From: Candidatus Heimdallarchaeota archaeon
GTDB lineage: Archaea; Asgardarchaeota; Heimdallarchaeia; JABLTI01
DNA: 64,000 bases
Direction: 5' to 3'
Assembly: GCA_030614005.1 (NCBI GenBank)
Contig: JAUWKS010000005.1
Location: forward strand, 41,964 to 105,963
Position numbers and translations under genes: made by a program. The notes under the pieces are model-generated. The model was given only the letters and a program-made list of their open reading frames with translations. It was not told where the DNA came from and ran no database searches. Below, piece by piece: positions 3,078 to 48,753 of the stretch; the stretch's first letter is position 1; every line of letters begins with the position of its first letter.

Positions 3078-6000
3078 TTACTCTGTTTGGGGGAGGAGTA
3101 TCTCATTTTCAACAAAGTAGATTATTTGCTGAAGAATTTCATCATGAGAGAGAGTTTTCGACTCTTTAAATGAACGAGTAATTAATTGATGAATATCTAA
3201 AGCTGTATCTTCACCAAAATTCTCAAGATGGTTTTCAAGAATAGAAACCATTTGAATATCCGCAATATTTGTTTTAGCTAGATTTTCCTTGTGAATAAGC
3301 ATGGGAGCAAAGTAGTAGATATGTAAGTACTCATCCAATAATGGTATTGCAGTATTAAATACTTCAACGAGCCCAGTGAATTCTTCTAGGTCTCTTTTAA
3401 AGACAGTTTCAAATCGTTTAAGCAAGTCCCAATTTGGCATTTTGAATTCCTTGGATGGCTCATCATCAAGAAGGAGAGCAAGTCTAACATTCTTACCCTC
3501 AAAAATCCAGAAAATGCCTCCTTTTTGACCCATTTGACTAAATTTGTTAGAAGGTGGTTGATCAGCATCTACCAATTCTTGACCAAAACCTGCAATTGCT
3601 GTCAAAAAGCCACTAGCTAAGGCTGAATCAATGTTATGAGCAAAATTAATTGAAAGTAATGGAACTCCATTCTTCTCCATGAAGATAATGGATTTGATTT
3701 TTAAAATATCAGTTAAAAAGCCAATAGAAACTTTCGAATCAGTTTTCAAAACGGAAACTACAGGAGAAGTTTCAGGAGCTTTAATAGCGTCAAAATTCAG
3801 TGGTTCAATTTCAGTTGTTTCGATAATAGCAACTGGAGCAGCTTCAGTTTTTGCTAGATCTTCAGCTTGGAGCTCTTTCCGTCTTAACTTTCTTTCCTTT
3901 CTCGCCGGTCGTAATTTTATTACAAGCAAAGTTGAGATGATAATTACAACAGCACCTGTGGACAAACCACCTATCAATAGATAAAGCCAAAGATTATTGC
4001 CAGGATAATCAGTGTTGTCATTTGGGTCAGTTCCTGCGTCAATTTCCTCTTTGTCAGTAAAACCATCGTTGTCTGAATCGGCGCTAAGGGGGTTGGTTAT
4101 AAAACCATCAACTCCCTCAAAGACTTCTTCTCCATCTAAAATACCATCGTCATCGGTGTCCTCATTATTGGGATCAGTGTAATAAGTAAAAATCTCGAGA
4201 TTATCATCTAACCCATCGGAATCTGTATCTGCTTTGTAGGGATTTGTTTCAAAAATCTCTAGTTCAAAGTAATCAGCAAGACCATCACCATCAAAATCGC
4301 GGTCAATGATTTCTAAACCATCATTAAAGTCTGCAAGGTAAGTGTAATTTTCATAAAAAGAAACACCATAAGCATTTCCACCATCGTAAAATTCTTCTCT
4401 TAGTCTTGGACTAGCTTTATTTGTAACATCAATTGTTTTCAAACCTGAACTACCATCAGCGAGATATGCAAAATCACCGAAAACATCTATCCCATATGCC
4501 GAACTGGTCCCATCATCATATTCACCTACTTCTTGAGGGTTCACTTTATCACTGATATCAACAATTTCCAAACCAAGCGATCTATCAACTAAATAAGCAT
4601 AAGCACCATTCACTACAACTTCATTGCAGCTTCCGCCATCATCAAAAACACCTACAGTAACAGGATTTAACTTATCATTAATATTAATAATCTTCAAACC
4701 ATCATAATTATCTGCGATGTAAGCGTAATTACCTGAAACAAAAATGCTCTGAGCGTTAGTAATTAGATTATCGTATTTTACTAATTGTACTGGGCTGTTT
4801 TTATCTGTGATGTCAAAAATTTCCAAACCATCTGAGCTATCCGCTAAGAAAGCATAATTATCAACCACCATCACATCTGTGTAATACCCACCATCAGTAA
4901 AGTCACCAACTTTCTGAGGACTGTCTTTATTACTAACGTCAATAATTTTGAAACCATCATTTCCACAAGCAATAAAAACATAATTGCCTGCTACAAAAAT
5001 ATCATTGGTATAACCACCATCATTGAAGTGACCTATACTTTGAGGATGTGTTTTGTTACTAATATCGATAATATCCATACCATTGTAACCACTAGCAAGA
5101 TATGCGAAATTATCTTCGACTGCAACTTTTCTTGCGTATCCTCCTGTAACAAATTGTCCTTCTTCAAATGGATTAGATTTGACACTAGCGTCAATGATTT
5201 CAAAACCATCCCAACCATCTGCTAAATAAACAATATTTCCGTCAACTAAAACATCTACAGCATATCCACCATCGAAGAAGTATCCAACTTCTACCGGGTT
5301 AAATAGGTCTACAATACTAACTATGATCAAACCACTCAGATAGGTAGCTAAGTAAGCAAAATCACCAAAAACATCGATATCTTGAACAAAATATCCATCA
5401 TCGAATGTACTAACTAATGCTGGGCTATTTTTGTAAGTGACATCAATTATCTTCATTCCATCCCAACCAGCTGCAAGAAAGATATTATTACCGTTCAATG
5501 CAATACTAGAGTAAGAATCTCCAGCATCATAACCACTAATTGGATCGGGATGGCTTTTATCAGTAATATTTAAGATATTTAAACCATCATTTCCAGCTGC
5601 TAGAAAAGCAATATCTTCATCGATAACAATATCATACTCGTTTCCAAGTGTATTGAATACACTTTTTTGAACAGGGTTATTTTTATCAGAAACATCAACA
5701 ATTATCATACCATTTGAATATTCCATAATGTAAACAAAATTACCATCCACAACGATGGATTCAATGCTACTCCATGTGGAAAGATGAGCAATTTCTATAG
5801 GATTTGTTTTATTACTGATATCAATAACTCTTAGACCATTATAACCTACAAAGGCATAATCGCCATCTACTGCTACTGCTCTAATTATGTAATTATCATA
5901 CAGTTGACTTACAAATGAAGGTGATGTAGAATCGCTTATATCAAGAATTTGAAAACCGCTAAAAGAACTAGCCAGGTAAGCATAATCACCTGAAATATCC

Positions 6001-6251
6001 ACATCTAATATTGAACCATACTTTTCATCAATTTGACCGAGTTCGATATCATAGTAAATAGAAGTCGTCTCTAAATTGGTAAAAGGTGGGAGACTATTAG
6101 TGATTAACTCATTTTCGTCAATGTTCTCTCCACTAAGAAAGTTATTTTGCTGCAATTGGAAAAATATTGAACAACAAAAAAGTAAAATTACAAATCCTGG
6201 CATTAATGTTCTTCTCAATTGCCAGATATTAAGTAACATCAAAGTAATCAT
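3078..6251 (-). CDS. Large single-pass membrane receptor-like protein. Order: signal peptide, ~14 LVIVD beta-propeller repeats, thrombospondin type-3-like Ca-binding repeats, TM helix, cytoplasmic Roadblock/LC7 (MglB-like) domain, helical C-terminal domain
   Basis: N-terminal hydrophobic signal. Repeated ~43-aa units of the form GDYAYLA...GLxIIDISNKTNP (LVIVD signature GMIIVDVSD, GLEIVDISD, GFEIIDASV). DxDxDGxxDxxE repeats (DTDSDGLDDNLE, DTDDDGILDGEE, DSDNDGFTDKEE). TM LWLYLLIGGLSTGAVVIIISTLLVIKL followed by the basic stop-transfer RPARKERKLRRK. Cytoplasmic SKVSIGFLTDILKIKSIIFMEKNGVPLLSINFAHNIDSALASGFLTAIAGFGQELV...GGIFWIFEGKNVRLALLLDDE fits the roadblock fold consensus. Confidence 0.8.
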   Translation of the reverse strand: MITLMLLNIWQLRRTLMPGFVILLFCCSIFFQLQQNNFLSGENIDENELITNSLPPFTNLETTSIYYDIELGQIDEKYGSILDVDISGDYAYLASSFSGFQILDISDSTSPSFVSQLYDNYIIRAVAVDGDYAFVGYNGLRVIDISNKTNPIEIAHLSTWSSIESIVVDGNFVYIMEYSNGMIIVDVSDKNNPVQKSVFNTLGNEYDIVIDEDIAFLAAGNDGLNILNITDKSHPDPISGYDAGDSYSSIALNGNNIFLAAGWDGMKIIDVTYKNSPALVSTFDDGYFVQDIDVFGDFAYLATYLSGLIIVSIVDLFNPVEVGYFFDGGYAVDVLVDGNIVYLADGWDGFEIIDASVKSNPFEEGQFVTGGYARKVAVEDNFAYLASGYNGMDIIDISNKTHPQSIGHFNDGGYTNDIFVAGNYVFIACGNDGFKIIDVSNKDSPQKVGDFTDGGYYTDVMVVDNYAFLADSSDGLEIFDITDKNSPVQLVKYDNLITNAQSIFVSGNYAYIADNYDGLKIININDKLNPVTVGVFDDGGSCNEVVVNGAYAYLVDRSLGLEIVDISDKVNPQEVGEYDDGTSSAYGIDVFGDFAYLADGSSGLKTIDVTNKASPRLREEFYDGGNAYGVSFYENYTYLADFNDGLEIIDRDFDGDGLADYFELEIFETNPYKADTDSDGLDDNLEIFTYYTDPNNEDTDDDGILDGEEVFEGVDGFITNPLSADSDNDGFTDKEEIDAGTDPNDNTDYPGNNLWLYLLIGGLSTGAVVIIISTLLVIKLRPARKERKLRRKELQAEDLAKTEAAPVAIIETTEIEPLNFDAIKAPETSPVVSVLKTDSKVSIGFLTDILKIKSIIFMEKNGVPLLSINFAHNIDSALASGFLTAIAGFGQELVDADQPPSNKFSQMGQKGGIFWIFEGKNVRLALLLDDEPSKEFKMPNWDLLKRFETVFKRDLEEFTGLVEVFNTAIPLLDEYLHIYYFAPMLIHKENLAKTNIADIQMVSILENHLENFGEDTALDIHQLITRSFKESKTLSHDEILQQIIYFVENEILLPQTE
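4100..6050 (-). repeat. Tandem ~129-nt (43-codon) coding repeats encoding the LVIVD beta-propeller blades of the 3078..6251 gene
   Basis: Periodic recurrence of GD(Y/F)AY(L/I)A ... G(L/M)xI(I/V)D(I/V)S(D/N)K(T/N/S)xP in the translation. Boundaries are approximate. Confidence 0.6.
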
Positions 6252-10335: not shown

Positions 10336-10884
10336 TTACTCTTCCATTTCATGCTGTTTCATTTCTTCTACAGCTTTTCTGAATTTATCAATTGGTTTAT
10401 CCTTTTTACGACCAAATTTAGTAACAATGGGTATTAACACACCAAATGTGAGTAAAGCTGCAATGGGAATCGTTGCCCAATCTAATTTTAATAATCCATC
10501 ATTTGGTGGAAAAACTAAATCAAGTGCTAATAAAAGACCACTAGCTCCTACCATTAATATTGGTCCAACAATCCAAGCAATTTCTGGTCGTTTGAAGATA
10601 ATGAAGCTAACAACATATGCAAAAATTAATCCACCCATTGGCCACCAAGCCCAATCAATTTGTAAAATGGCAGTATTTGGCAAAGTTACAATGTCAATTA
10701 CCAGTAAGAAAATGCAAATTAAACTAATATTTAGTGGTGTTACCCACCATTTAAAAGTCGGAATTCTATCCCAAAACGTTCTTTTGGTTGAAAAATCTTG
10801 AATTACTTTTTCTTTGCTTTGAAGAGTATTCTTCTCCTTATTGGGATCTGTTGTATTCTTATTGTTCACTGTTGTCATTTCCAT
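10336..10884 (-). CDS. Membrane protein with an internal duplication (two TM hairpins), function unknown
   Basis: Repeated LQIDWAWWP... / LKLDWATIP... segments, each followed by hydrophobic helices. Confidence 0.45.
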   Translation of the reverse strand: MEMTTVNNKNTTDPNKEKNTLQSKEKVIQDFSTKRTFWDRIPTFKWWVTPLNISLICIFLLVIDIVTLPNTAILQIDWAWWPMGGLIFAYVVSFIIFKRPEIAWIVGPILMVGASGLLLALDLVFPPNDGLLKLDWATIPIAALLTFGVLIPIVTKFGRKKDKPIDKFRKAVEEMKQHEMEE

Positions 10885-10987
10885 CTAAAGAAAAGTTCAC
10901 CACTAGCTATTTATTTGTTTAGAAATAATGGATTAACCAATTGCTTGTAGACATAAAAATAATATTGAGCATCAGCAAATATAGCAA

Positions 10988-11368
10988 TTAAAATTCTATG
11001 ATATAACGGCTAAATTTTAAAAACCATCCTTCGTCATTCAGGAGCTCTGAATGAAGACCTTCACTCAAAGTAACAATATTAGTTCCATCAACAGAGACTT
11101 CTATATCCTTTGTTGTCTCATAATTCTCTTCCAAGGCAAATAGAAAATCATGAATGGCAGTATCAATTCCTGCAACAAAGCTCTTGCGGATTGTTTCTCT
11201 TTGTTCTGAAGAGAATTCTTTCAAATCTTTCTGTATTTTCTGTAACGCTGAAGGTTTCCAGTATCCGATTAATAGTTTGTCGAAGAAATCAATTGCACTA
11301 TCTCTCAAATTGCTAACTAGAAATTCACCAAATTTATCTAATAGGAGATCAGAACTCATTGTACTCAT
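10988..11368 (-). CDS. Hypothetical cytoplasmic protein
   Basis: 126-aa ORF with coding-like composition; no recognisable motif. Confidence 0.35.
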   Translation of the reverse strand: MSTMSSDLLLDKFGEFLVSNLRDSAIDFFDKLLIGYWKPSALQKIQKDLKEFSSEQRETIRKSFVAGIDTAIHDFLFALEENYETTKDIEVSVDGTNIVTLSEGLHSELLNDEGWFLKFSRYIIEF

Positions 11369-11525
11369 TTTGAAGTAAATAATAGCTTGTTTTAAATTCT
11401 TATTATCATTAAAATAATACTCACATACTCTTAAGAGTAGAGTGATTAGTAGTTCTCCGTATTACATCATTGAACTTTAAATGAACTTTTTCTTCTTTTT
11501 TGACATTTGTTGAGTCAATTGGTTT

Positions 11526-12059
11526 TTATTCTTCAACAGAGAGTGCTAATCCATCTTTGTTTATTTTTCCATCTTTAAGATCAATAACTCGTGTTCCATC
11601 TCTAACTAAATTAATATCATGAGTTGTAATTAATAGAGTAACTTTGAGTTGTCTATGTAATTCGTAAAGTTGATCCATGACATTATCTGCAAGTTCAGAA
11701 TCCATATTTGCGGTAGGTTCGTCTAAAATTAGTATCCTTGGCGAACCAAATAGAGCAATAGCGAGAGAAGCTCTTTGCAATTCTCCGCCTGAGATTTCCA
11801 ATGGGAATGAATCTTTTCTGTGATTAATTTGGTACAGCTCAAATATACTGCTAATCTTAGTTTCGGGTAAGTCGTTTACTAGAACTGTTTTTCCAGCTAA
11901 AATATCCTTAACAAATAAGTTCTCTTGCAAAGTCATAAACGGATGAAGGTCACCTTGCTAAAATACAATGCCAATATTATTTCGTCTGAATTTTGCTCTA
12001 GCAGTATCATTGAGAGTATGAAGAGGTTGGTTGAGAATAAGAGGACCAGAATTATCATT
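11526..12059 (-). pseudogene. ABC transporter ATP-binding protein remnant: N-terminus including Walker A is deleted, and an in-frame amber (TAG, 11958..11960) replaces the conserved Q-loop glutamine
   Basis: Downstream ORF has the ABC signature LSGGELQRASLAIAL, Walker B ILILDEPT and H-loop TTHD. The same frame upstream reads ...SGPLILNQPLHTLNDTARAKFRRNNIGIVF*QGDLHPFMTLQENL, i.e. the Q-loop consensus IGxVFQ...P.lTv.EN with TAG exactly at the Q codon. Further upstream there is only an AT-rich non-coding sequence with a TAA stop where Walker A should be. Confidence 0.7.
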
Positions 12060-12214
12060 TTAGATAACAAATACTTTCTTTCTTTCCTGTTAGTCTGTGC
12101 TTTATTTCCTTTCTAAATTTTATTTATATTGGTATAAACATACAATTTGATTGCTAAATTTAACTTATTGAATTCTAAATTGTAAGAAACAATTAATTTA
12201 GGAAAAAAACGTAA

Positions 12215-12259
12215 TAAACTTGAAATAAAATAAAAAAATAGAAGGGAAAAAATCCTTCT
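12215..12259 (-). terminator. Hairpin (AGAAGG-N8-CCTTCT, 12240..12259) followed on the minus strand by an oligo-T tract; putative terminator of the C11 peptidase gene
   Basis: Inverted repeat 14 nt downstream of the stop at 12273; minus-strand T-rich run ATTTTTTTATTTTATTT. Confidence 0.4.
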
Positions 12260-12272
12260 AAGCAATTTTTGA

Positions 12273-14378
12273 TTATCTATTTTTTTTGCGAAGTACGTAA
12301 GCACCAACTGCAATTAAACCAAATGTACTAACAATAATAGTAAATCCATTGAATAAGCCAGATGGTTCAGAACTACTAGAACCAACTTCATCAGAAGTCA
12401 AAGTGAATGTAAAGGAACCTTGCCCTTCGTAAGAAAAGATACAAATAATATAGGTTACTGATTCTGTAATAGTTAGAGATAGTGAATCTGTATCACCTAC
12501 TCCTTCTGAAGAATCAATGATAACAAATGTTTCAGTTGTTACAAACAAGTCAAAATCAACAACAGCGCTGTTATAGGTTAGTTCTAAATAATAATCACCA
12601 GGTGTATCGAAAGTAAATTGGTAATAATGATTGTATGTTTGCTGGAAATGATCATTGTCAACACCTTCATGGGATCCACTACTGTCTGTAACACTATTTC
12701 CAAGAACCAATGTTTGAGGAGTGACTTCTTCTATTCTTAAATCGTAAGTGGATGAAGAGTAACCGTATATATTGATAACATATGTTCCAGGTTGGAAGGC
12801 TAACTGAATTGCTTCAGTGTTGCTATCTCCTGGGTTGTATAGTATGCTATAACCCATTAAAGTTAGATCAAATCCTCCATAGAGATAGAGGTCTGCATCT
12901 CCACCAGACACCAAAGCGGTTATTTCGTAGATTCCGTAATCTGGGATGTAAAATTGATAGTAGTGATCTTCATCTTCACTTATTGATACGGTTCCAGTAG
13001 AAACACCAATATCAATTTCGTCAAAGTCTAATTTTTGAGCACCAAAACCCGCTGTGTAGAAATCGTCTAAAAATTCGTCCCAGAGAGTGTCAGTTTGCCA
13101 ATCTAGAAAAGCATAACTATCTGTGACATCGAGGTAATCTTGAATATATGGAACATAAGTGGGTGTATCTACTGGCATAAAGATTGTTATTCCATTTGCA
13201 TTGGATGAATAACAACTGTGCTGATAGTTGTCAACTATAAGATCTGCGAGAGCACTTTGAAGATTTGTCGCGCTAGTAGATAAAAGAGTATAAGATGACA
13301 TCATAGTTGAATTAGCTTGAATATTTTCTACGAAATGAACTAAATCAACAATAAAGTAATCATAAAAGAATTGAGTGTCTAAGAAAGCATCATTTATTCC
13401 TCCTCCGTTACCATCAGCAACAACTATAGATAGATTGCCGGCAAAATAATTTAATTCTTGGGCTACAACATCCATTACACTTAGATTAATGGTTGAAAGT
13501 GTCGTATAATCAACAGATGGGTTGTAATAGCTTTCATACGCATCTACTATAACTGTTGATAAAGTAGCTGCATCCATAGTGGCCGTATCATTCAACGAAG
13601 AAATTACTGGTGCATAATCAAAACCAGCAAATGGTATAGATTCTTCAGAAGCAATAAAGTAATCCGCTTGATCTTTAAATTCGTAAGCAACTTCGATCAT
13701 ATTCATATAACAAGCATCATGTGAAATGATAGCAAAGGTTTCACTGTGAGTATCAATATTTTCTTGAATAGCTACTTGCATTTCTTCCATAGTTAGCTTA
13801 TCAGCTGAAGCACTGTCATCCCAACAAATGCCATCTATACCTCCTCCGTGATCCCAGATGTTTAACCAGTACTGATTAGCATCGTAATTTGTGAAACAAA
13901 AATCGATAAAATACTCTAGAATGTCTCCATTAGCCATATTTAGCTCTCCCTCATCACTAAGTAAGGTGGAAGCTATTGTTGTGGTGTCATCTGAAACAAT
14001 TTCGTAAATTCGCGCGCCTGTCCAGTCACCATTTGAGGTATCATACCCCACAGCTCTGTCGATTAAAACAATAACCTTAATGTCAGTGTTTGAACCAAGT
14101 CCTGATTCCAATTCATTAAAGTCCTCAATTGCTACTTCTTCAAGATCATTATCTCCATCTAAGTAAACCATAACAACCCATTCATAATCATAAGCTTTTA
14201 TTGTTACATTTAGTTGTGTTGGTAAACTCTCTTGTGAAACGATTTGATCATTTTGTGTTTGTCCTTGAGTTTGTAAAATAGTTGTTGAACTAAATAACAT
14301 AATTAGAACAAATGGTAGAAGAAGCAAAGCATTAACACTTCGAATCTTTTTTGCAATTTTATTAAATGAATTTAGCAA
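12273..14378 (-). CDS. Secreted clostripain-family (C11) cysteine peptidase with a C-terminal pre-peptidase (PPC)-like beta domain and a PGF-CTERM-like membrane anchor
   Basis: Signal peptide; MVYLDGDNDLE motif; catalytic His/Cys context WDHGGGIDG ... ISHDACYM (the C11 His-Cys dyad arrangement); PPC-like YYQFYIPDYGIYEITALVSGGDADLYLY. C-terminal Ser-rich linker plus LFNGFTIIVSTFGLIAVGAYVLRKKNR (TM plus basic tail). Confidence 0.75.
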   Translation of the reverse strand: MLNSFNKIAKKIRSVNALLLLPFVLIMLFSSTTILQTQGQTQNDQIVSQESLPTQLNVTIKAYDYEWVVMVYLDGDNDLEEVAIEDFNELESGLGSNTDIKVIVLIDRAVGYDTSNGDWTGARIYEIVSDDTTTIASTLLSDEGELNMANGDILEYFIDFCFTNYDANQYWLNIWDHGGGIDGICWDDSASADKLTMEEMQVAIQENIDTHSETFAIISHDACYMNMIEVAYEFKDQADYFIASEESIPFAGFDYAPVISSLNDTATMDAATLSTVIVDAYESYYNPSVDYTTLSTINLSVMDVVAQELNYFAGNLSIVVADGNGGGINDAFLDTQFFYDYFIVDLVHFVENIQANSTMMSSYTLLSTSATNLQSALADLIVDNYQHSCYSSNANGITIFMPVDTPTYVPYIQDYLDVTDSYAFLDWQTDTLWDEFLDDFYTAGFGAQKLDFDEIDIGVSTGTVSISEDEDHYYQFYIPDYGIYEITALVSGGDADLYLYGGFDLTLMGYSILYNPGDSNTEAIQLAFQPGTYVINIYGYSSSTYDLRIEEVTPQTLVLGNSVTDSSGSHEGVDNDHFQQTYNHYYQFTFDTPGDYYLELTYNSAVVDFDLFVTTETFVIIDSSEGVGDTDSLSLTITESVTYIICIFSYEGQGSFTFTLTSDEVGSSSSEPSGLFNGFTIIVSTFGLIAVGAYVLRKKNR

Positions 14379-15085: not shown

Positions 15086-16534
15086 GTGAGCGCAGGAAGT
15101 AAAAAAGCAATTAAGATAGATCACCTTATGCTAAAAGCTCCTGAGAGGTATCAAGACAAAGATTACACAAAAATCACTTTAAAACAATTTGAGAGTTTAA
15201 TTCCTGAAGAGGTACCGAGTTTAATAAAAGAAGATATTGTATCTTATTTTAACTATCTAAGAGACAATAGAAGCAAGAAAAGTTTGAAGCAATGGGAAAC
15301 AGTTTCGAGTTGTAAGGATTCAGCGAATAGTTACAAAGTAGAGAACTATCGACCTATTTTTTCTTTTCTATATTATGATCGAATCACAGAAGGACTTTTC
15401 TTACCTTTGCTATTGAATAAAATAGATATTACTGCTGGAAGTCATTCCGAAGAAATATCTATTGATGTATTTAATCAACTCTGTCGATTAACCATTGTTG
15501 GGTTTAAACCGAAAATTGATGCTATCGATTTGAAAATATTGCAAGCTCTTTCAAAAGACCCATCTATGGTCACTCAAACTTTGACTGATAAAATAGGTCA
15601 TTCATATGCTGCTGTTTATCATCATTTACAAAGATTGAAAGGTAAAATGGGTTTAAGAATAACTACTCGAGTTAATTGGGCAAAATTAGGTGTTCAAAGG
15701 GTATTTCTTATTTCAGATGAAGAAAAGAATTTCGAGATCTTTAGGGATTATAAACCATTCTTAGATGGTCAATCATCATTTCTTTGGGGAGGAACATTTT
15801 ATTTACAATATTATCTTTTACGAAGTGAAATAAGAGAAAAATTCATACAAAAATATCAAGATTTGGCAGAAAACCAAAAACAATCAATGAAGCTATATGA
15901 GCTTTCTGCTGCACCAATTTCTGGTATTAGTTTTGATTTGTACAAACTAGACGAACAAAAGTGGGACTTTGATTTCGCATCAACTTTTTTGAAACCAAAA
16001 ACAATCACTAAAGCAGTTAAACGTGAATTTTTCTTAGATCTATTCCCTCCAGAAACTGTTTATGAGTTGAATGAATTAGAACAAAAAATAATAAATGAAC
16101 TAGTAGTTAGCTATGCACTTGCTCAAAAAGAAATTGCTAGTTCCTTGGGGATTCATCCACCAAATTTATCCATAATCAAAAACAAATTACAGAAAGATGA
16201 AATAATTAAACCACAACTAATGGTTACAACATTTTTACCTCTCTATTGTATTTTATGGTGTAGCTCTCAAGAGCAAGAAATTATTGATACACTTGTTGCA
16301 TTAATGGAAAAAATCCCCTATTCAAATATCTCTCCAGTCTATTCTTTTGAAGAAACGAAAACAAAACAATTAATTTGCTATCTACTTATGGATGATGTTC
16401 TATACTATAGCTTAGTAACTTTCTTGATGAATTTAGTGAAAGAAAATCGATTAATTGATTTTCGTTTGGGTCTAATTACTGATCGCTATTTTAGTATAGC
16501 GAGGATCATTGATATTTTAAATAAAGAAATTTAG
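15086..16534 (+). CDS. Transcription-regulator-like protein with two Lrp/AsnC-type winged-helix HTH modules (GTG start called; the true start may be the ATG at ~15128)
   Basis: IDAIDLKILQALSKDPSMVTQTLTDKIGHSYAAVYHHLQRLKGKMG (HTH_AsnC-like) and a second LNELEQKIINELVVSYALAQKEIASSLGIHPPNLSIIKNKLQKDEII. Same architecture as 38638..39732. Confidence 0.5.
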   Translation: MSAGSKKAIKIDHLMLKAPERYQDKDYTKITLKQFESLIPEEVPSLIKEDIVSYFNYLRDNRSKKSLKQWETVSSCKDSANSYKVENYRPIFSFLYYDRITEGLFLPLLLNKIDITAGSHSEEISIDVFNQLCRLTIVGFKPKIDAIDLKILQALSKDPSMVTQTLTDKIGHSYAAVYHHLQRLKGKMGLRITTRVNWAKLGVQRVFLISDEEKNFEIFRDYKPFLDGQSSFLWGGTFYLQYYLLRSEIREKFIQKYQDLAENQKQSMKLYELSAAPISGISFDLYKLDEQKWDFDFASTFLKPKTITKAVKREFFLDLFPPETVYELNELEQKIINELVVSYALAQKEIASSLGIHPPNLSIIKNKLQKDEIIKPQLMVTTFLPLYCILWCSSQEQEIIDTLVALMEKIPYSNISPVYSFEETKTKQLICYLLMDDVLYYSLVTFLMNLVKENRLIDFRLGLITDRYFSIARIIDILNKEI

Positions 16535-17660: not shown

Positions 17661-19016
17661 ATGAAATCGAAATTTCTTACCTTGATATTAGTGGTATGTA
17701 TTACCACACCAGGGTTCTTCGTTATAGCAACTGAAGTTAGTAGTATGCCAATTTTTGCAAATGCAACTGATTTCTTTGACATACAAGATGAACCATATTT
17801 AGTTTTGAGTGGAGACAGTCTCAGTACAGAAAAAAGTGTTTTACCTTCCGTCATTCCTTTTTGGCATGATTTGGTTGATAAAGAAAATGTACCTTTGACT
17901 GGTGAAGGTGTTTATGTAGCAGTATTGGATACTGGTCTTCTCCCAGATTGGGAATTCATCTTCTCTGAAGCAAATATAGCGAGTGAACTCGGAATGGGTT
18001 TCTCTCATGATATCTACTGGGATGATACAATTGAAGATATAGTAATAAGCGACGTTGTTTCTGATCGTGGATTTTTAACTGATTTAGCGAGTGGACATGG
18101 AACTCATGTCACAAGTACAATTGTTGGTTATAATTATGCAGATATGGTATGGATAGAAGGCATCGCTCCGGATGTGACTATCATCCCAATTCTAGTATTA
18201 GATGCTTGGATGGTTGACACTCCAGTTGGACCTGTTACTTTTAGTGGTGGGTCAAGTGCAATGATTGCTACTGGAATATACTATATTGCTGATTTAACAG
18301 AAAGTTTGGACGGACCAGTTATTATCAATATGAGTCTAGGTGGTTCCGGGGAAACTCCTGAAATCGAAGCAGCAGTAGATTATGCTATTAGTAAAGGTGT
18401 AATTATAGTCGCTTCCGCAGGTAATAACGGAGAAGCAGGGATGAGTTATCCCGGTGCTTATAATCAAGTAATCTCTGCAGCAGCGTGCGGTTGGACTGAT
18501 ATGCTTGCCCAAGGTTGGACTGCAGATGTCCCTGAAAAACTTAACACTAATGATAGTTTAGGAAATGACTATCAAGTATATCTAACAGGATTCAGTAGCA
18601 GACCAAATAGAACATTAGGGCAAAAATACCGTGATCTTGATGTAATGGCTCCTGGAGATTGGATCGTAGGTCCATATAAATTAAAATGGGCTCCAGTTGA
18701 ATATTGGGGTTATTATTATGTCTCTGGTACAAGTATGGCTGCTCCACATGTTTCAGCAATAGCTGCTTTGGTTTTAGAAATATTTCCAATGTTTGACCAA
18801 AGAGACATTGAATTTGTGCTAAAATTGGCTGCTAGTGGTGTTGGTCCAAATAAACGAAGAGGCTTCCCACGAATTGGTGAAGATGTTAAAGTTGCGTATT
18901 TTGGCAATCAATACTATACTGTTTCCTGGGGAAGACATGATTATGGTCGTGGATTCTTGCAAGCTGATACAGCAATATTAACTGCATTGCTTTATTACTT
19001 CATCTTTTATCGCTAG
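17661..19016 (+). CDS. Secreted subtilisin-like serine protease (S8) with N-terminal signal and propeptide
   Basis: Catalytic triad motifs VAVLDTGL (Asp), HGTHVTSTIVG (His), SGTSMAAPHVSAIAALV (Ser). Signal peptide MKSKFLTLILVVCITTPGFFVIA. SD GGGTG precedes the ATG. Confidence 0.85.
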   Translation: MKSKFLTLILVVCITTPGFFVIATEVSSMPIFANATDFFDIQDEPYLVLSGDSLSTEKSVLPSVIPFWHDLVDKENVPLTGEGVYVAVLDTGLLPDWEFIFSEANIASELGMGFSHDIYWDDTIEDIVISDVVSDRGFLTDLASGHGTHVTSTIVGYNYADMVWIEGIAPDVTIIPILVLDAWMVDTPVGPVTFSGGSSAMIATGIYYIADLTESLDGPVIINMSLGGSGETPEIEAAVDYAISKGVIIVASAGNNGEAGMSYPGAYNQVISAAACGWTDMLAQGWTADVPEKLNTNDSLGNDYQVYLTGFSSRPNRTLGQKYRDLDVMAPGDWIVGPYKLKWAPVEYWGYYYVSGTSMAAPHVSAIAALVLEIFPMFDQRDIEFVLKLAASGVGPNKRRGFPRIGEDVKVAYFGNQYYTVSWGRHDYGRGFLQADTAILTALLYYFIFYR

Positions 19017-21316: not shown

Positions 21317-22258
21317 TTGAAGCAAGTATCTATTACTGAAGAAGTTAGAAATTTAAAATCAAGTGATGTAAGCACTCGTAAGAAAGCAGCGTGGTCTTTA
21401 GGAGATATTGGGGATAAAAGAGTTGTAGGTCCTTTGGTGACTGCTCTAACAAAGGATAAAGATAGATTTGTTAGAAAAAATGCCGCAAAAGCATTAGCAA
21501 AGATAGGCGATCCAAGAGCAAATAAGGCTTTAAAATTTGCTAAACAGAAAGATAGAGATCCGAAAGTAAGAGAAGAAGCTGCATACGCAATTTCTAGAAT
21601 TAAAGAGCTAAATTCAAAATCAAAAAAACCAAAACTGAAAGTTTCACGAACAGTAGGAAAAGTGCGTAATAAAAATCCTCCAAAAAGAAGTGAAATTTCA
21701 CAAGTACACACCAAAAGACCTGTTGTTAAGAAAAGAAGGAAAGCACCTGTAAGGAAAATTGCTAAACTATCTACTCGAGTAAGTTCAAAATCAAGAAGTT
21801 CTTCACCAATTAGAAGGAGTACATCTAGTTCCTCTGCAAGGAAAAAACCATCTTCTAAAAAACCTGTTAGAGTAAAGCCAAAATCAAAACCTGCAGCAAG
21901 AACACCAGTAAGAAGCACAAAACCAAGGAGTCAATCCTCTACAAGAAAAATTAGTAGTACTGGTAGGTCAGTAAAAACAAGAAGCAGTAGCAGTTCAGCG
22001 AGACCTGTTAGAAAAGTATCTAGTAGTTCATCAAAATCCGTTCGACGAACTTCAAGTAGATCCTCAAAACCCGTCAGACGAACTTCGAGCAGCACAACAA
22101 GAACAGTGGTTAAAGTATCTGGTAGCAAACCTAGCACAAGACCTGTTAAGAAAGGTGTAAAAAGAACCTCAAGCTCTGTAAAGAGTTCCACCTCAAAAAG
22201 AAAAAGCAGTGATAAGTATCCTAGACCAGTTTCTTCAAAGAAGAAGAGAAGAAGGTAA
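21317..22258 (+). CDS. HEAT-repeat (PBS-lyase-type) protein with a ~215-aa highly basic Ser/Arg/Lys/Pro-rich low-complexity C-terminal tail
   Basis: RKKAAWSLGDIGDKRVVGPLVTALTKDKDRFVRKNAAKALAKIGDPRA (PBS-lyase HEAT-like repeats), then KKPKLKVSRTVGKVRNK...SRSSSPIRRSTSSSSARKKPSSKKPVRVKPKSKPAARTPVRS...VRRTSSRSSKPVRRTSSSTTR... ending KKKRRR. Confidence 0.7.
   Translation: MKQVSITEEVRNLKSSDVSTRKKAAWSLGDIGDKRVVGPLVTALTKDKDRFVRKNAAKALAKIGDPRANKALKFAKQKDRDPKVREEAAYAISRIKELNSKSKKPKLKVSRTVGKVRNKNPPKRSEISQVHTKRPVVKKRRKAPVRKIAKLSTRVSSKSRSSSPIRRSTSSSSARKKPSSKKPVRVKPKSKPAARTPVRSTKPRSQSSTRKISSTGRSVKTRSSSSSARPVRKVSSSSSKSVRRTSSRSSKPVRRTSSSTTRTVVKVSGSKPSTRPVKKGVKRTSSSVKSSTSKRKSSDKYPRPVSSKKKRRR
21600..22258 (+). 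repeat. Low-complexity, imperfectly repetitive coding tract (S/R/K/P/V-rich; recurring ...SSKPVRRTSS... units) producing long spurious antisense ORFs
   Basis: Compositional bias visible in the translation. The antisense ORFs 21313..21918 and 21931..22284 are Leu/Phe-rich mirror artefacts. Confidence 0.6.
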
Positions 22259-22378: not shown

Positions 22379-24811
22379 TTATTCTCTAATTGCAGTTGCT
22401 AATTGTAGTTTTCGAAGTAAATTTAGACTTGGTAAGGTCGAGATGAATACACAACTAAGTGCAAATCCGAAAGTCATAAGATAATCGCCCCAAAAATACA
22501 CAGAATCCAACTCGAAAAATAACTCACTGATGAAATATTTAATCAATCGACCCAAGCCTTCTCCACCAAGTGCTATTCCAAATAACACTGCTAAAAAGAT
22601 TAAAGCGCCTATCTCTAAGATGATTTGAAGGAAAATCTGCCCCTTTCGAAATCCGAAAGTTCTTTGTAAAGCTATCTCACGAGTCCGTTCAATTATTGAA
22701 ACAAAAGCTGTCACAAAGATGATCAGAAATGAAATAACCAAAGACAAAACAATTGTTACTTTTACAATGAATAGTTGAGTATTCACCATATGAACCATTC
22801 GAGTTTCATAAGTATCTTTCATTATAGCATATTGAATTTGGGTGTTTTCGTTTAAGTCTAAGAGCAATGAATCAATGGATGCGGTATTCAATGTGTCCAT
22901 ATTGGCTAGTTTAATAAATGCCCTATTTATCGCAGAAAATCCCAATGTTTCTTCAATAGCAGGGATTAACATGAAGCATGAATTTGGTATATCTAAATCT
23001 CGAACAATACCAACAATTTCAATTTGAAATTCAACTCCTAATAACGAAAAGTTGAAATAATCTCCGACTCCTAGACCCAAAGGTTTCGCAGAATAACTTG
23101 AGATAATTCCTTCTTGAGCTGATTCATTCGAAAACATTGCGCCTTCCTTAAGACTGATGGTATACAAGGTTGAATCAGGTTGTAATCCTCTAAGATCTAG
23201 ACTATATTCCGGCATGTCTGGCATTTCTGTATTTCCACTCAAGTAAGGTTCATAACTTTCAATAAAGTCATACTCATCGAGAATGTTCTGTATCTCAGCT
23301 TCCGATTTAAAGGAATCAAACCGGGTTTGCACGTCCCAATGGATTTGATCATCAAAGTAGTTATCAAATGTTGTGTTAATTGAAGTCTGGGTTTGAATTA
23401 AAGCAAAAGAAATTGCTATAGCACTGATAAATGCACTAGTAATTAAAATACCTCTGACACGATTTCGTGAAATATTACGAAGAGGATATTTAATTGAAGT
23501 TGATAATGATGATGATTTTGTTCCTCTAACCGAATTTGGTGATTTCTTCTTTCTTTTCTTTACTTTGTATTCAGTTTTTCCTCGTATTGCTTCATATGGA
23601 GTCATTTTTACATTACTTCGACAAGCAAAGTATGTGAAGAGTTGTGATGAGAGAATGACGAGAGCAGGAACAACAATTAACCCTGGAATTGAGAAACGAG
23701 TTAATATCAAAGGTATCCCCCATCGAGAGACTAAGATACGTACCAATATCTGTAAAAATCCATATGAACCAAGGATTCCGAGAAGAGTAGATAATATTGA
23801 GATAATTAACGTTCGGAGCATGAAGACCCGTAAAATAATTTTAGATTGATAACCAAAAGCATACAACATGCCTGTCTGTTTTCTCTGTTCGATAGCATAT
23901 CGCTTGGTAATCAAATAAATTACAATTCCCGCACCCAAGATTATTGCACATGCCATAACAAAAAGTATTTGGGAAGTTAGATTGAGAACATCTTGGAAAA
24001 GAGAGCTAATACTGAATTCCCGAACATACCATTCATAGAGGATTTGTGCTTCAACAGGATTGACTTCTTCGCGCAAATCATCGGCAAATGTTGTTACAAA
24101 TTCAAGGTCAGGATCACTTGGGAAATAAAAAGCAACACTATTAAATTGAATTTTATTCCAATCATTAAATTCTTGGAAGGTTTCATAGTTAAGATAGATA
24201 GCTCCCTCTAAGGATAAATCATAACTCAAAAATTCAATTGATTTTACTAACCCAACTATTTCTACTTCTTTCACTCCAGCAATTGTATAGAGGGTAATCG
24301 TATCTCCAATCCCAATGTCTAATTCACTGGCAAATGATTCCAAAATAAAAGCTGTATCATTTTGTAATGCTGAAAATTCTCTATCTGAACTGACTTGATT
24401 GACTTTTGGTGGAGCTGTTGTATTAATTCCAATAATACTCGTAAAATACCATTTTGATGCATGGTATAGTTGAAAACTACAAGAGGGTCGAACATCATAT
24501 GAAATATTATTATAATTTGGATTTGTATTGATTAGATCTTCAACACTATTACGAATTTCACTAGTATTACCCGCAAAACCCATTTCTAAGTACGACAATT
24601 TATATGATTCATTACTTTCTAGTATGGAGGCATTTATGCTGGGATCAATTGAAAACATAGCTAGAGGAACGGAGACTATGACAAAGAAAACAAGAAATAA
24701 CAAGAAGGTGCGTTTCTTTTGAAAACGAAATTCTCGAAAAATGGTTTTATATATTTGCCGCATTTGATACTGCTCCATCTTCGGTTTTACTGAATAAAGA
24801 TTTTGATTCAT
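22379..24811 (-). CDS. ABC transporter permease, FtsX/MacB-like, with two FtsX domains and large extracytoplasmic domains
   Basis: 810 aa; two 4-TM FtsX-like blocks (…GYQSKIILRVFMLRTLIISILSTLLGILGSYGF… and C-terminal …QRTFGFRKGQIFLQIILEIGALIFLAVLFGIALG…), each preceded by a large soluble domain. Overlaps the upstream ATPase gene end by up to 65 nt, consistent with translational coupling. Confidence 0.8.
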   Translation of the reverse strand: MNQNLYSVKPKMEQYQMRQIYKTIFREFRFQKKRTFLLFLVFFVIVSVPLAMFSIDPSINASILESNESYKLSYLEMGFAGNTSEIRNSVEDLINTNPNYNNISYDVRPSCSFQLYHASKWYFTSIIGINTTAPPKVNQVSSDREFSALQNDTAFILESFASELDIGIGDTITLYTIAGVKEVEIVGLVKSIEFLSYDLSLEGAIYLNYETFQEFNDWNKIQFNSVAFYFPSDPDLEFVTTFADDLREEVNPVEAQILYEWYVREFSISSLFQDVLNLTSQILFVMACAIILGAGIVIYLITKRYAIEQRKQTGMLYAFGYQSKIILRVFMLRTLIISILSTLLGILGSYGFLQILVRILVSRWGIPLILTRFSIPGLIVVPALVILSSQLFTYFACRSNVKMTPYEAIRGKTEYKVKKRKKKSPNSVRGTKSSSLSTSIKYPLRNISRNRVRGILITSAFISAIAISFALIQTQTSINTTFDNYFDDQIHWDVQTRFDSFKSEAEIQNILDEYDFIESYEPYLSGNTEMPDMPEYSLDLRGLQPDSTLYTISLKEGAMFSNESAQEGIISSYSAKPLGLGVGDYFNFSLLGVEFQIEIVGIVRDLDIPNSCFMLIPAIEETLGFSAINRAFIKLANMDTLNTASIDSLLLDLNENTQIQYAIMKDTYETRMVHMVNTQLFIVKVTIVLSLVISFLIIFVTAFVSIIERTREIALQRTFGFRKGQIFLQIILEIGALIFLAVLFGIALGGEGLGRLIKYFISELFFELDSVYFWGDYLMTFGFALSCVFISTLPSLNLLRKLQLATAIRE

Positions 24812-25505
24812 CGCTTACAATTTGACCAGAACGTAAAGTAATCACACGATCAGCATAGCATTCTAATTCTTGATCATGAGTAACCAACAGAACAGTTTTA
24901 TTTTTCTCTTTAGCAATTTTTTGAATTAAGCTAACGATATTGTTTCCTGTCTTCTGATCTAATTGTCCAGTGGGTTCATCAATTAACAAGATATCAGGGC
25001 TCTTGGCTAAAGCACGAGCAATTGCAACACGTTGACGCTCGCCACCTGAAAGCTGAAAGGGGAAATTATCCATCCGATGTTCCAACCCAACCAAGGTAAG
25101 ATGTTCTTCAGCGAGTTTGCTAATATCTTTTCGTTTGCGAAGGGTTAATTCTAATACAAGTTCAACATTTTCACGGGCTGTTAGTGTTGGAATTAAAGAA
25201 TAAAACTGAAATACGAAAGCTAGTCTTTTCTTACGATAAAGTGTTAGCTCTTTATCTGAGTATTGAGCAATATCGTCTCCCAAAATTTCGATAGACCCAC
25301 TAGTAGGATGATCGATTCCACCTATAAGATTAATTAGAGTTGTTTTTCCCGAGCCAGAAGGGCCCATAATAAAAACAATTTCTCCTGAGTCGACAGTAAA
25401 TGAAATATTATCCAAAGCATTAACAGACATATCTCCTAATTTGTAATGCTTTGTTAAATTTGATATTTTAATGATTGAATTTGAATCTTTATGGTGGGAT
25501 ATCAT
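24747..25505 (-). CDS. ABC transporter ATP-binding protein (MacB/LolD-like)
   Basis: Walker A GPSGSGKTTL, Q-loop FVFQF, signature LSGGERQRVAIARAL, Walker B LLIDEPTGQLD, H-loop VTHD. Confidence 0.9.
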   Translation of the reverse strand: MISHHKDSNSIIKISNLTKHYKLGDMSVNALDNISFTVDSGEIVFIMGPSGSGKTTLINLIGGIDHPTSGSIEILGDDIAQYSDKELTLYRKKRLAFVFQFYSLIPTLTARENVELVLELTLRKRKDISKLAEEHLTLVGLEHRMDNFPFQLSGGERQRVAIARALAKSPDILLIDEPTGQLDQKTGNNIVSLIQKIAKEKNKTVLLVTHDQELECYADRVITLRSGQIVSDESKSLFSKTEDGAVSNAANI

Positions 25506-38637: not shown

Positions 38638-39732
38638 ATGTCTAATAATTATCTGTCTGAATTGGATCATAATGATATTCGTATTGTTAGCACGCTTGAT
38701 TCTCTTCCACACAGGAGCTCCACAGAAAGAATTAGTGTGGAATTGGATATTCCATCACGGAGCATTCGTTATCGGTTATCGAAATTAAAAGAAAAAAATA
38801 TTCTAAAAGAGCAAACGGTTATTACTCATGAACGAAAGCTCGGCATTCGGGAATCTTTTATTATTATTGAAGAAAATCCCAAATACAGAGAAACATTTCA
38901 GAAAATCATTGGGGAGAATCCTGCTCTAAGCTGGTACGTTCCTACTTCTGGAAAGTTTCAAGGATTTATATTGCATTCAATAAATACAATGAATGTACCA
39001 GATTATCCTCAGCAATTATTAGCACTAATGAAAGAAAACGAGATAGTTAATGATTATTTTCATTTTGAGATAATTGATTATCAGGAATTTGGATGGAACT
39101 ACAATTATTTTAACACAGAAGGGAAATGGATTTGGAATTGGAAGATTTGGGAAGATAATATCAGAAATAAAAATTATAATCAGGAATCAGTCGTGTTTGA
39201 AGAAAACCCTGAAGTAACTAATTTTGATTATCTTGATATTCAAATATTGAAAAATCTCATTCTTTTTGAAAGTATAACGCAAAAGGAGATAGGAAAGAAA
39301 TTAGCACTATCTGAATCACAAATTGGCCGAAGGATTCGTTCAATGGAACAAAGTGGAATTATTCGCGGTTATCGAACTGGTTTCGCACCCTTTTCTGAAA
39401 CTCAAACAGTTATGTGTATGATTAAAATTGGCGATTCCTTTGATCGTATTGTGAATATTCTAAAACAAATCCCATATCCAAAAACAATAGCTTTTGAAAA
39501 TAGACAATCGATTGGTTTTGGTTTTCAAATACCAACCAATGAAATGAAGGGTTTTCTCAATGGACTTCATTGTTTGCGTCCTCTCATAGATTCATACTTT
39601 GTTCAATATCAACTAAGAAGCCCAACTTTCAATCCGCAGATATCTTTTGATTTGTTTGACAAAGGTTCAAATGATTTGAACCGAGTAGTAAAAGAATATG
39701 AACGATCTTTAGAATTCGTTAAAGCAATCTAA
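38638..39732 (+). CDS. Double winged-helix (Lrp/AsnC-like HTH) regulator-like protein, paralogous in architecture to 15086..16534
   Basis: DIRIVSTLDSLPHRSSTERISVELDIPSRSIRYRLSKLKEKNIL and DYLDIQILKNLILFESITQKEIGKKLALSESQIGRRIRSMEQSGIIRGY, with a Trp-rich linker (WIWNWKIWEDN). Confidence 0.5.
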   Translation: MSNNYLSELDHNDIRIVSTLDSLPHRSSTERISVELDIPSRSIRYRLSKLKEKNILKEQTVITHERKLGIRESFIIIEENPKYRETFQKIIGENPALSWYVPTSGKFQGFILHSINTMNVPDYPQQLLALMKENEIVNDYFHFEIIDYQEFGWNYNYFNTEGKWIWNWKIWEDNIRNKNYNQESVVFEENPEVTNFDYLDIQILKNLILFESITQKEIGKKLALSESQIGRRIRSMEQSGIIRGYRTGFAPFSETQTVMCMIKIGDSFDRIVNILKQIPYPKTIAFENRQSIGFGFQIPTNEMKGFLNGLHCLRPLIDSYFVQYQLRSPTFNPQISFDLFDKGSNDLNRVVKEYERSLEFVKAI

Positions 39733-47553: not shown

Positions 47554-48753
47554 TTACTTCTGTAAATCTTCAATAGAATCTATTGTAATTTTCTGTAAAC
47601 ATATAGGGCATTTACCTTGTGTTTTTAACCATTCGAAGAGATGGGTAAGATGGGCTTTGGATTCACAGAGAGGACATTGACCAATTTCTTGATTTTGTGA
47701 AATAGGTAATTTGCAAACAGAACATTTGAGGGTTTCCTTGTTGCAATTTGAGCAAATTTTCTGAGTTTTAGAAATCGGGCTCATGCAATAATAACATACA
47801 AGTCCATTTCTTGCTTCTTTAAAGTTAAATATATTATCAATTTCAGCTCTAAATTGAGAATCGCCCAATAACATATTTTGAAGATCTTTCTCTTGTCGTC
47901 CTCTTTCGTTTATGATTAAATGTCTCGAGCCACTCTTACTATCAAATCGAGCTATCCAAAATAAATGGTAAAAAGTATCAACATTTTCAAATTTGGTTAT
48001 TTTGAAATCCTTTTTAATTTTCAAAGCATTTCTCATACCAAGAAACCATTGCCTTTTGAATTTCTCCACAATGCTATTCTGTATAGCAATCTTACCATTT
48101 GCTTCTTTTCTTAATTTTCTCGTTTGGTTTTTGAAATCAGTAGCTTGTTGTCTGTATTCTTTGTATTCAGGCGATGATTTATTAGAGGAGTACATTTCAG
48201 CATTTTTTTGAGCAATGTCTGCTTTTTGTTGAAGAGTGTCAGCTTCTGTAAATAATGGTTGCACTTCTTCTCTAGTTTTTTCTAAATCCAATACTAACTC
48301 ATCATGACGGTGAATATATATTTCAAATAAGCTAGTATAAACAATGCTAGGATCTAAAAACTGAATCACGGGTACATTAATAGTATACGAACCTAAAAGG
48401 TGCAAAAGCCTTTTTTCCTCTTTTGAATAAATCAATGTTAATGCTTTTCTTCCTCCTTTATCCAGTAAAAGTTTCTGAACAAAAGGAAATGAAAATTTAC
48501 CCAACATAAAATTACTTCTTGTATGAATTTTAGTTGAAGTATCAATAGGAGAATTCTGTTTTGTGTAGCTAATCTCAAATTGCCGTACTGGCCATAACAC
48601 TGGTTTGAGATAGGTTAATTTTTCAATTATTTTTCTCTGTAAGAGCCCCCCTTTCTTCCGATGCCTTTCGACTATTTCTTTGATTTTACTTTTCTCTAAA
48701 TTATTCTGAATAACGCGATAACTCACACGGGAAGGCTCCTGGAGAAAATTCAT
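47554..48753 (-). CDS. Coiled-coil protein with C-terminal zinc-ribbon plus RING-H2/PHD-like cross-brace zinc finger
   Basis: C-terminus CYYC-x9-CSNC (ribbon), then CSVC-x12-CPLC-x4-HLTH-x3-WL-x5-CPIC, i.e. Cx2C-x12-Cx2C-x4-Hx2H-x10-Cx2C with the WL....CPxC signature typical of RING-H2 fingers. Confidence 0.55.
   Translation of the reverse strand: MNFLQEPSRVSYRVIQNNLEKSKIKEIVERHRKKGGLLQRKIIEKLTYLKPVLWPVRQFEISYTKQNSPIDTSTKIHTRSNFMLGKFSFPFVQKLLLDKGGRKALTLIYSKEEKRLLHLLGSYTINVPVIQFLDPSIVYTSLFEIYIHRHDELVLDLEKTREEVQPLFTEADTLQQKADIAQKNAEMYSSNKSSPEYKEYRQQATDFKNQTRKLRKEANGKIAIQNSIVEKFKRQWFLGMRNALKIKKDFKITKFENVDTFYHLFWIARFDSKSGSRHLIINERGRQEKDLQNMLLGDSQFRAEIDNIFNFKEARNGLVCYYCMSPISKTQKICSNCNKETLKCSVCKLPISQNQEIGQCPLCESKAHLTHLFEWLKTQGKCPICLQKITIDSIEDLQK

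Follow-up and report, generated by a model that had tools for sequence, protein, structure and literature searches.

The gene at 3078..6251(−) of the 64-kb window (the whole stretch of DNA analysed here) specifies a surface protein that crosses the membrane once, in a type-I-like manner, and has an N-terminal signal or anchor segment, 14 LVIVD repeats, four thrombospondin type-3 (TSP3) motifs, one transmembrane helix and a 278-aa cytoplasmic tail that carries a predicted roadblock-type domain. The homologues point to an Asgard host, probably allied to Heimdallarchaeia. The tail is a portable module, and exhaustive searching identified its closest soluble relatives as fusions of a Rab-like GTPase with the same module, in a Rag-like layout. 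The original prediction of a receptor with a roadblock-type tail is supported, and the protein can be placed in an Asgard family of module-tailed surface proteins.

Architecture and membrane topology of the receptor

The protein had been described as a 1057-aa single-pass surface protein, and the open reading frame indeed lies exactly at these coordinates, with a lone transmembrane helix after the N-terminal segment. An exact look-up of the protein returned no match. Its features are as follows.

3078..6251 (−), whole receptor gene, 1057 codons plus stop, ATG start (open reading frame list, domain scans)
6153..6251 (−), aa 1–33, N-terminal signal peptide or signal anchor, MITLMLLNIWQLRRTLMPGFVILLFCCSIFFQL (hydropathy)
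4302..6014 (−), aa ~80–650, 14 extracellular LVIVD repeats with a 42-aa period (Pfam, repeat register)
4017..4298 (−), aa 652–745, TSP3-like Ca-binding stalk with four DxDxDGxxDxxE motifs (Pfam, motif scan)
3915..3992 (−), aa 754–779, single transmembrane helix, LWLYLLIGGLSTGAVVIIISTLLVIK (hydropathy maximum 2.32)
3726..3914 (−), aa 780–842, basic stop-transfer, then low-complexity cytoplasmic linker (sequence)
3402..3725 (−), aa 843–950, predicted roadblock/longin-fold domain, alpha-beta-beta-alpha-beta-beta-beta-alpha
3081..3401 (−), aa 951–1057, helical linker and acidic, winged-helix-like C-terminal domain (AF2)

Pfam and motif scans agree with the proposed ectodomain of about 14 LVIVD blades followed by TSP3 repeats. 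The LVIVD family (PF08309) matches 14 stretches (E 1.1e-97; 319.6 bits, cut-off 20.2) and TSP3_bac (PF18884) matches three (E 9.3e-14; 51.4 bits, cut-off 25). The motif scan resolves 13 strict LVIVD cores, G[LFM]x[ITV][ILVF][DNS], spaced 40–43 aa apart, with a degenerate 14th repeat inside a doubled 84-aa gap around aa 307, and it places the four DxDxDGxxDxxE motifs at aa 652–736. The array is predicted to form two seven-bladed beta-propellers, and we read this putative double propeller on its TSP3 stalk as a binding or adhesion head; the net charge of the ectodomain is −102. A standard LVIVD array on a bacterial-type TSP3 stalk relates the ectodomain to archaeal and bacterial LVIVD/TSP3 surface proteins (Adindla et al. 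2004, PMC2447325). A link to motility through CglD, MtsD and MtsC was rejected because these NCBIfam matches are partial, cover the TSP3 repeats only and fall far under the cut-off. A tandem LVIVD-like paralogue at another locus, L008, has no roadblock-like tail module.

Only two segments are hydrophobic, at aa ~14–34 and aa 754–779. The first reaches a hydropathy maximum of 2.08 at aa 14–34, with a basic RR ahead of the hydrophobic core. The second is preceded by the acidic DPNDNTDYPGNN and followed by the basic LRPARKERKLRRKE, with 8 K/R within the first 14 residues, so that by the positive-inside rule the tail is cytoplasmic; hydropathy and flank charges thus agree with the orientation proposed at the outset, with the LVIVD region outside. 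The linker is modelled over tail residues 1–10, where pLDDT is about 52. Across the family, the median distance from the end of the transmembrane helix to the module is 17 aa, much shorter in most members than here.

An APH kinase gene adjoins the receptor gene in the window, and another adjoins the receptor gene in L008. This pairing was rejected as synteny, the two APH proteins having no detectable similarity.

The fold of the cytoplasmic tail

AlphaFold and Foldseek analysis of the tail gave a roadblock-type fold, in which a central helix lies against a sheet of five strands, with MglB as the best structural match (E 1e-4, 22–25% identity) and LAMTOR2/3, the RagC CRD and Gtr2 among the others. 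The fold expected for the tail is thus borne out by the model; its expected position at ~790–930 is not, because aa 780–842 form the low-complexity linker and the domain occupies aa ~843–950. By sequence, too, the best PDB match is MglB, at E 0.04 across the full domain; one member of the module family has LAMTOR3 as its highest-scoring sequence match, and another, P0027, shows a sub-threshold Robl_LC7 match within the module (E 0.003; 17.6 bits, cut-off 23). Family models and profiles were silent or nearly so: Robl_LC7 (PF03259) has no match in the whole receptor at E<=1 or in the tail alone at E<=10, Pfam and NCBIfam searches found no roadblock or longin family in either, the family profile A1 matched no PDB sequence, and an hhalign comparison of A1 with an MglB fragment reached a probability of only 10%. 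On the predicted structure, the roadblock-type domain is real at the level of fold.

A fold of the roadblock/longin class also raises the reading that the tail serves in sorting or trafficking as a longin-type domain, comparable to those of Sec22b, VAMP7 and Ykt6, which would govern delivery, localization or turnover, for example at protrusions or vesicles, with no part in signalling. We consider this improbable. Ahead of beta1 the tail domain has a predicted helix, conserved in the family as the motif D.LNI; a helix in this N-terminal position would mark roadblock, and not longin, by the definitions in PMC10933270. The weak sequence links lead in every case to roadblock proteins and in none to longins. 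Longin SNAREs, moreover, carry the longin domain at the N terminus and are anchored by the tail, an orientation opposite to that of the receptor, which has no SNARE motif and has both the predicted N-terminal helix and a large ectodomain.

Conservation within the family is strongest on the central helix (G52, F53, A56, F60 and E63), where the family motif D..L.SGFL.AI..F..E is located. This is an indirect hint of putative dimerization through the central helix and an edge strand.

A helical domain of ~130 aa had been expected after the roadblock domain, and a helical domain is present there, spanning aa 951–1057 and winged-helix-like in its predicted form (pLDDT 89.4 when modelled alone with AF2). 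Foldseek of this domain alone found nothing significant, the weak best matches, at E about 1, being winged helices of Fur/PerR/Mur and histone H1; a weak Pfam match in this region is to Cullin_Nedd8 (E 0.087). A winged helix could suggest a membrane-tethered one-component regulator, in which the roadblock-like domain, resembling GAF and profilin folds, would sense a cytoplasmic small molecule and the winged helix would bind DNA. This appears very improbable: besides the insignificant winged-helix matches, family-model searches of the tail detected no HTH family, and the C-terminal domain is strongly acidic (net charge −12, with 7 K/R against 19 D/E), its net charge being positive in only 8 of 34 family members. 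A membrane-tethered transcription factor of the ToxR/CadC type was rejected because of this acidity.

A portable tail module in Asgard archaea

The module comprises ~215 aa in two domains, the predicted roadblock/longin-fold domain and then the helical, winged-helix-like one. Exhaustive searching, on which the extent of the family rests, recovered 243 representative clusters that contain it (a word-indexed homologue search yielded just 2 and 6 matches), and the named sources are all Asgard (Heimdall, Loki and Odin). Among the 150 best, roughly two thirds have the module directly behind a transmembrane helix with a large, variable ectodomain above, which gives at least about 100 different surface proteins with a single membrane pass and with heads that include LVIVD, FG-GAP, Ig-like and solute-binding domains; the relative P0003 has an SBP_bac_5 head. 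A pattern scan for the close subfamily returned one locus in genome contigs and one in metagenome contigs. Among the neighbouring genes, one of ~120 aa is conserved.

This family falls outside all Pfam and NCBIfam models searched, and the literature searched contains no description of the signal peptide–ectodomain–transmembrane–roadblock architecture. Expansion and domain shuffling of the Asgard roadblock/longin superfamily are described by Tran et al. 2024 (PMC10933270) and Liu et al. 2020 (asCOGs), in passages that deal with soluble proteins, with GTPase fusions and with two-component fusions; the word ‘transmembrane’ does not occur in the former. The soluble roadblock, longin and GTPase–roadblock proteins treated there have superfold and lineage in common with the receptor tail.

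The GTPase connection comes from the soluble paralogues. Three of them (P0006, P0007 and P0011) carry a Ras-superfamily G domain followed by the module, as in Rag proteins, and two of the three genes are immediate neighbours, in the manner of a Rag pair. Among the three queries HRAS, ARF1 and RAB5, their G domains score best against Rab5. The receptor itself contains no G domain or P-loop in domain and motif scans. The statement that no GTPase gene is adjacent extends, by Pfam and sequence scans, to the entire window, and at the module-family loci examined no GTPase is encoded near the receptor genes. A match of profile A1 at 48114..48281(−) of the window was judged spurious, being out of frame with the real open reading frame.

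This absence of neighbouring GTPases is compatible with the module being a generic oligomerization or scaffolding unit without a GTPase role, which would cluster surface proteins or tie them to module-bearing cytoplasmic machines, the GTPase fusions being one cargo among many. The range of other carriers points the same way: the module occurs on HerA/FtsK ATPases in 5 of the 10 soluble members scanned and on HEAT/PC-repeat, FG-GAP+PCI/DDRGK and TPR proteins, and two module-bearing genes adjoin each other in each of L002 and L007. We nevertheless regard this reading as somewhat unlikely, since the GTPase fusions are the closest soluble relatives of the receptor tail and many structural neighbours of the tail domain are GTPase platforms. 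It shares its pairing step with the explanation that we prefer.

A candidate membrane platform for small GTPases

In Myxococcus and Thermus, MglB is a roadblock-domain protein that acts as the GAP for MglA, a Ras-like GTPase. In Ragulator, LAMTOR2/3 roadblock dimers are anchored to the membrane by lipidated LAMTOR1, and Rag proteins combine a G domain with a C-terminal roadblock. The order of fold elements in MglB is the same as in the receptor tail domain. MglB is a small soluble homodimer, whereas the receptor carries the domain as the tail of a 1057-aa transmembrane protein, adds a winged-helix-like domain, has no Pfam Robl_LC7 match and has no cognate GTPase gene nearby. The Ragulator–Rag layout is likewise a membrane-anchored roadblock platform with soluble GTPases that bring a roadblock domain of their own, here the three fusion paralogues. 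Its anchor is a lipidated scaffold protein; that of the receptor is a transmembrane helix, joined in one polypeptide to a large ectodomain.

The explanation that we prefer, with confidence that is about evenly balanced, is that the protein is a surface sensor or adhesin whose tail, fixed to the membrane, provides a pairing platform for small GTPases or for partners that bear the module. The ectodomain, a predicted double LVIVD propeller on a TSP3 stalk, would bind or adhere outside the cell. The roadblock-like domain would pair with its own copy or with a soluble partner that carries the module too, on the model of MglB dimers, Rag C-terminal domains and Ragulator. The resulting pair would form a membrane-fixed platform and would recruit or regulate a small Rab/Rag-like GTPase at the site of ectodomain engagement. 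Tail dimerization, GTPase binding and the coupling of ligand to tail are steps that we infer.

A more specific version, which we think unlikely, is that the receptor tail and the soluble Rab-like GTPase–module proteins heterodimerize through their shared modules. They would then constitute an archaeal counterpart of Ragulator–Rag in which the anchor is itself a ligand-binding receptor, and the Asgard receptor family would place non-prenylated small GTPases at defined membrane sites upon external contacts. If true, this would amount to pre-eukaryotic receptor-to-GTPase signalling and GTPase membrane targeting.

Small GTPases and roadblock/longin proteins are numerous in Asgard archaea, and these GTPases lack prenylation sites (PMC10933270). 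Cultured Asgards have no S-layer and many uncharacterized surface proteins that are thought to mediate cell–cell contact (PMC9834061). Module-tailed receptors whose nearest paralogues are GTPase–module fusions link the abundance of GTPases with the surface proteins, and the family could show how Asgard archaea connect the cell surface to GTPase switches. Should the preferred explanation be true, coupling of receptors to Ras-superfamily proteins and anchoring of GTPases by membrane-fixed roadblock platforms would predate eukaryotes. Were the module merely a generic pairing domain, it would still define a family outside the Pfam and NCBIfam models searched. The receptor family suggests testable pairs, of tail with GTPase and of tail with tail.

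Receptor architecture and topology

The receptor is encoded by the open reading frame (ORF) whose coordinates the original prediction had placed exactly:

3078–6251, minus strand: receptor ORF, ATG start, 1057 aa

The protein combines a surface-exposed propeller, a calcium-binding stalk, one transmembrane (TM) helix and cytoplasmic roadblock/longin and winged-helix-like domains. Pfam scans of the receptor protein match LVIVD in 14 stretches (E 1.1e-97) and TSP3_bac in three (E 9.3e-14). In a motif scan, the LVIVD cores are spaced 40–43 aa apart from approximately aa 99 to 645, with a degenerate repeat near aa 307, and are followed at aa 652–736 by four DxDxDGxxDxxE calcium-binding motifs, in agreement with the anticipated array of about 14 LVIVD blades and TSP3 repeats. 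NCBIfam matches (CglD, MtsD and others) were discarded, being confined to the TSP3 repeats and far under the cut-off. Hydropathy analysis reveals only two hydrophobic segments, assigned as an N-terminal signal or anchor (aa ~14–34) and the TM helix (aa 754–779). An acidic stretch precedes the TM helix and LRPARKERKLRRKE follows it; the ectodomain has a net charge of −102. The positive-inside rule places the LVIVD/TSP3 region outside the cell and aa 780–1057, the tail, in the cytoplasm, supporting the single-pass topology originally proposed.

Fold of the cytoplasmic tail

The tail had been predicted to contain a Roadblock/LC7 domain. The fold is supported by structure prediction, although Pfam, including Robl_LC7, gave no family match to the tail, either within the whole receptor or alone. 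AlphaFold2, run on a family alignment of 38 tails out of 243 clusters, produced a confident model (pLDDT 87.3, pTM 0.83) with a helix–strand–strand–helix–strand–strand–strand–helix order at aa 843–950, while aa 951–1057 comprise a helical linker, then three helices and short strands. In a Foldseek search of the PDB, MglB is the top match (22–25% identity), ahead of Prometheoarchaeum Roadblock2/3, LAMTOR2/MP1 and the sigma and zeta subunits of adaptor complexes, which are of longin type. Taken together, the predicted fold and its structural neighbours make the roadblock/longin superfold of the modelled domain secure. Conservation across the family is concentrated on the central helix (SGFL.AI..F..E).

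According to Tran et al. 2024 (PMC10933270), roadblock domains have an N-terminal helix that longin domains lack. This helix is predicted in the tail domain and conserved across the alignment (D.LNI). Myxococcus MglB accounts for the top three phmmer matches of the tail against PDB sequences, at a marginal E of 0.04 and over the entire putative domain. In P0027, a homologous protein, the tail matches LAMTOR3/MP1 at E 0.011 (8/8 top matches), and a sub-threshold Robl_LC7 match coincides exactly with the module, the ~215-aa two-domain part of the tail; all other members scanned lack a Pfam family for it. The helix and every weak sequence link favour the roadblock sub-class, and the domain is probably of roadblock type. 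A longin-like sorting role of the tail appears improbable. The family profile has no match in the PDB and aligns with MglB at an hhalign probability of only 10%; the domain is therefore not filed under Pfam Robl_LC7.

The helical domain expected after the roadblock domain is present in the model and reaches pLDDT 89 when predicted alone; its winged-helix resemblance is only weak. Foldseek found no significant structural neighbour for it, the best matches being winged helices of Fur-family regulators and histone H1. The domain is acidic (net charge −12), which counts against DNA binding and makes a role of the receptor as a membrane-tethered regulator highly improbable.

A tail module shared among Asgard archaea

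When 1.84 billion representatives were searched exhaustively by HMMER with the tail, 243 clusters matched at E ≤ 1e-3. Wherever a source names its organism, that organism is Asgard (Heimdallarchaeota, Lokiarchaeota/Promethearchaeota, Promethearchaeia, Odinarchaeia or ‘Asgard group’), and the entries all bear the annotation hypothetical or GTP-binding protein. Of the best 150 of the 243 representatives, 101 carry a TM helix ahead of the module (median gap 17 aa). In 90 of these 101 the N-terminal region is large (median 663 aa, maximum ~1700 aa), and 42 of the 64 such proteins that are complete begin with a hydrophobic signal. Ectodomains vary, including Big_1/MG4 Ig-like domains, FG-GAP and SBBP propellers and LVIVD, and these architectures mark the two-domain tail as a portable module. 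The closest tails (44–55% identity) all lie beneath a head on a TSP3 stalk, the heads being SBP_bac_5 (P0003), LVIVD (P0004 and locus L001) and FG-GAP (P0005). The solute-binding-protein head of P0003 suggests that receptors with this tail sense ligands rather than serving in adhesion alone. At locus L008, an 885-aa paralogue (10433–13126, plus strand) lies directly downstream of an LVIVD–TSP3–TM–module gene; it is 27% identical to the window receptor over 848 aa and has neither the tail module nor a Pfam match.

In about 30 of the 150, no TM helix is predicted ahead of the module; in those scanned, its fusion partners are Rab-like GTPases, HerA/FtsK ATPases, HEAT/PC repeats or FG-GAP+PCI/DDRGK proteins. 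Outside the receptors, the tail is most closely related to P0006, P0007 and P0011 (44, 38 and 33% identity over the whole module). In these ~450-aa proteins a Rab-like G domain (aa ~4–169; E 1e-34 to 1e-39 against Rab5) precedes the module, the same layout as Rag GTPases with their C-terminal roadblock domain. Several loci encode such fusions or further modules with candidate partners:

L002 9977–11305 (plus) and 11734–13113 (minus): neighbouring paralogous Rab-like GTPase+module fusions, Heimdallarchaeota MAG
L002 11357–11713 (plus) and L003 11385–11753 (minus): conserved ~120-aa gene without Pfam family, adjoining the fusions
L003 7211–7825 (plus): 188-aa small GTPase beside a fusion
L003 7877–9544 (minus): 555-aa protein beside a fusion, weak SMCR8_C (DENN/longin GAP-like) match
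L007 5705–7900 (plus): 726-aa TPR protein with the module's roadblock part at its C-terminal end (E 6e-8)

The adjacent paralogues of L002 recall Rag heterodimer pairs. The ~120-aa gene, carried by two independent Asgard contigs and located between the paralogues in L002, may encode a dedicated partner of the fusions. The L007 TPR gene lies ~100 bp upstream of P0003 (SBP_bac_5–TSP3–TM–module) on the same strand. Roadblock domains habitually form homo- and heterodimers, and the co-encoded module pairs of L002 and L007 fit this habit.

We propose that the tail uses its roadblock domain to pair, either with a second copy of itself or with soluble proteins carrying this module, and that such pairs would form a membrane-fixed platform recruiting or regulating a Rab/Rag-like GTPase at the site of ectodomain engagement, analogous to MglB–MglA and Ragulator–Rag. 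We consider this reading, taken whole, evenly poised. Its main rival, a generic pairing or scaffold unit without a GTPase role, draws on the fusions to ATPases and repeat scaffolds and seems unlikely; sorting and membrane-tethered regulation are less likely than either. It is established that the roadblock/longin superfamily has expanded and undergone domain shuffling in Asgards (Liu et al. 2020; Tran et al. 2024, PMC10933270; PMC12962969), and GTPase–roadblock fusions are already known. Receptor-type proteins with signal peptide, ectodomain, TM helix and roadblock tail are undescribed in the literature searched; asCOG supplementary tables may include them uncommented. The family joins two questions: how non-prenylated Asgard GTPases get to membranes (PMC10933270) and what role abundant Asgard surface proteins have (PMC9834061).

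Genes around the receptor

The 64-kb window contains no gene for a small GTPase, roadblock or longin protein, as judged by phmmer with H-Ras, Arf1, Rab5 and Asgard G domains, a scan for P-loop motifs and Pfam scans covering nearly every ORF of at least 100 aa. Receptor homologues of L001, L007 and L008 likewise lack an adjacent GTPase; in L009 one lies ~4 kb away. As originally argued, any partner must therefore act in trans, and these surroundings agree with Tran et al. (PMC10933270), in which Asgard GTPases generally lie outside operons of roadblock or longin genes. A module-profile match at 48114–48281 (minus; E 3e-4, 56 aa) was rejected as spurious, being out of frame with the overlapping ORF 47554–48753. 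Neighbours of the receptor are unrelated enzymes (APH kinase, 2-oxoacid_dh acyltransferase, alpha/beta hydrolases, GNAT and DegV), and the window also encodes:

12273–14378, minus: C11 clostripain-like peptidase with PPC domain, near the receptor gene
17661–19016, plus: S8 subtilase, near the receptor gene
21317–22258, plus: HEAT-repeat gene
22379–25505, minus: MacB-type FtsX permease and ABC ATPase pair
25688–27325: alpha-amylase
60113–62116: GH127

The peptidase, subtilase, GH127 and amylase suggest a lifestyle degrading extracellular polymers. The FtsX/ABC pair and HEAT-repeat gene recur near module-bearing genes of L002 and L007 (ABC ATPases 44–58% identical), probably reflecting genome relatedness and not a functional link. 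A 136-aa ORF at 11526–11936 (minus) corresponds to the C-terminal half of an ABC ATPase, with the SGGELQR signature and Walker B and without Walker A; it is 36–39% identical to full-length ABC ATPases of L002 and L007 and may represent a gene that has been truncated or frameshifted. Two proteins, encoded at 15086–16534 (plus, 482 aa) and 38638–39732 (plus, 364 aa), each contain an internal HTH_24/AsnC-type winged helix, their only Pfam family match.
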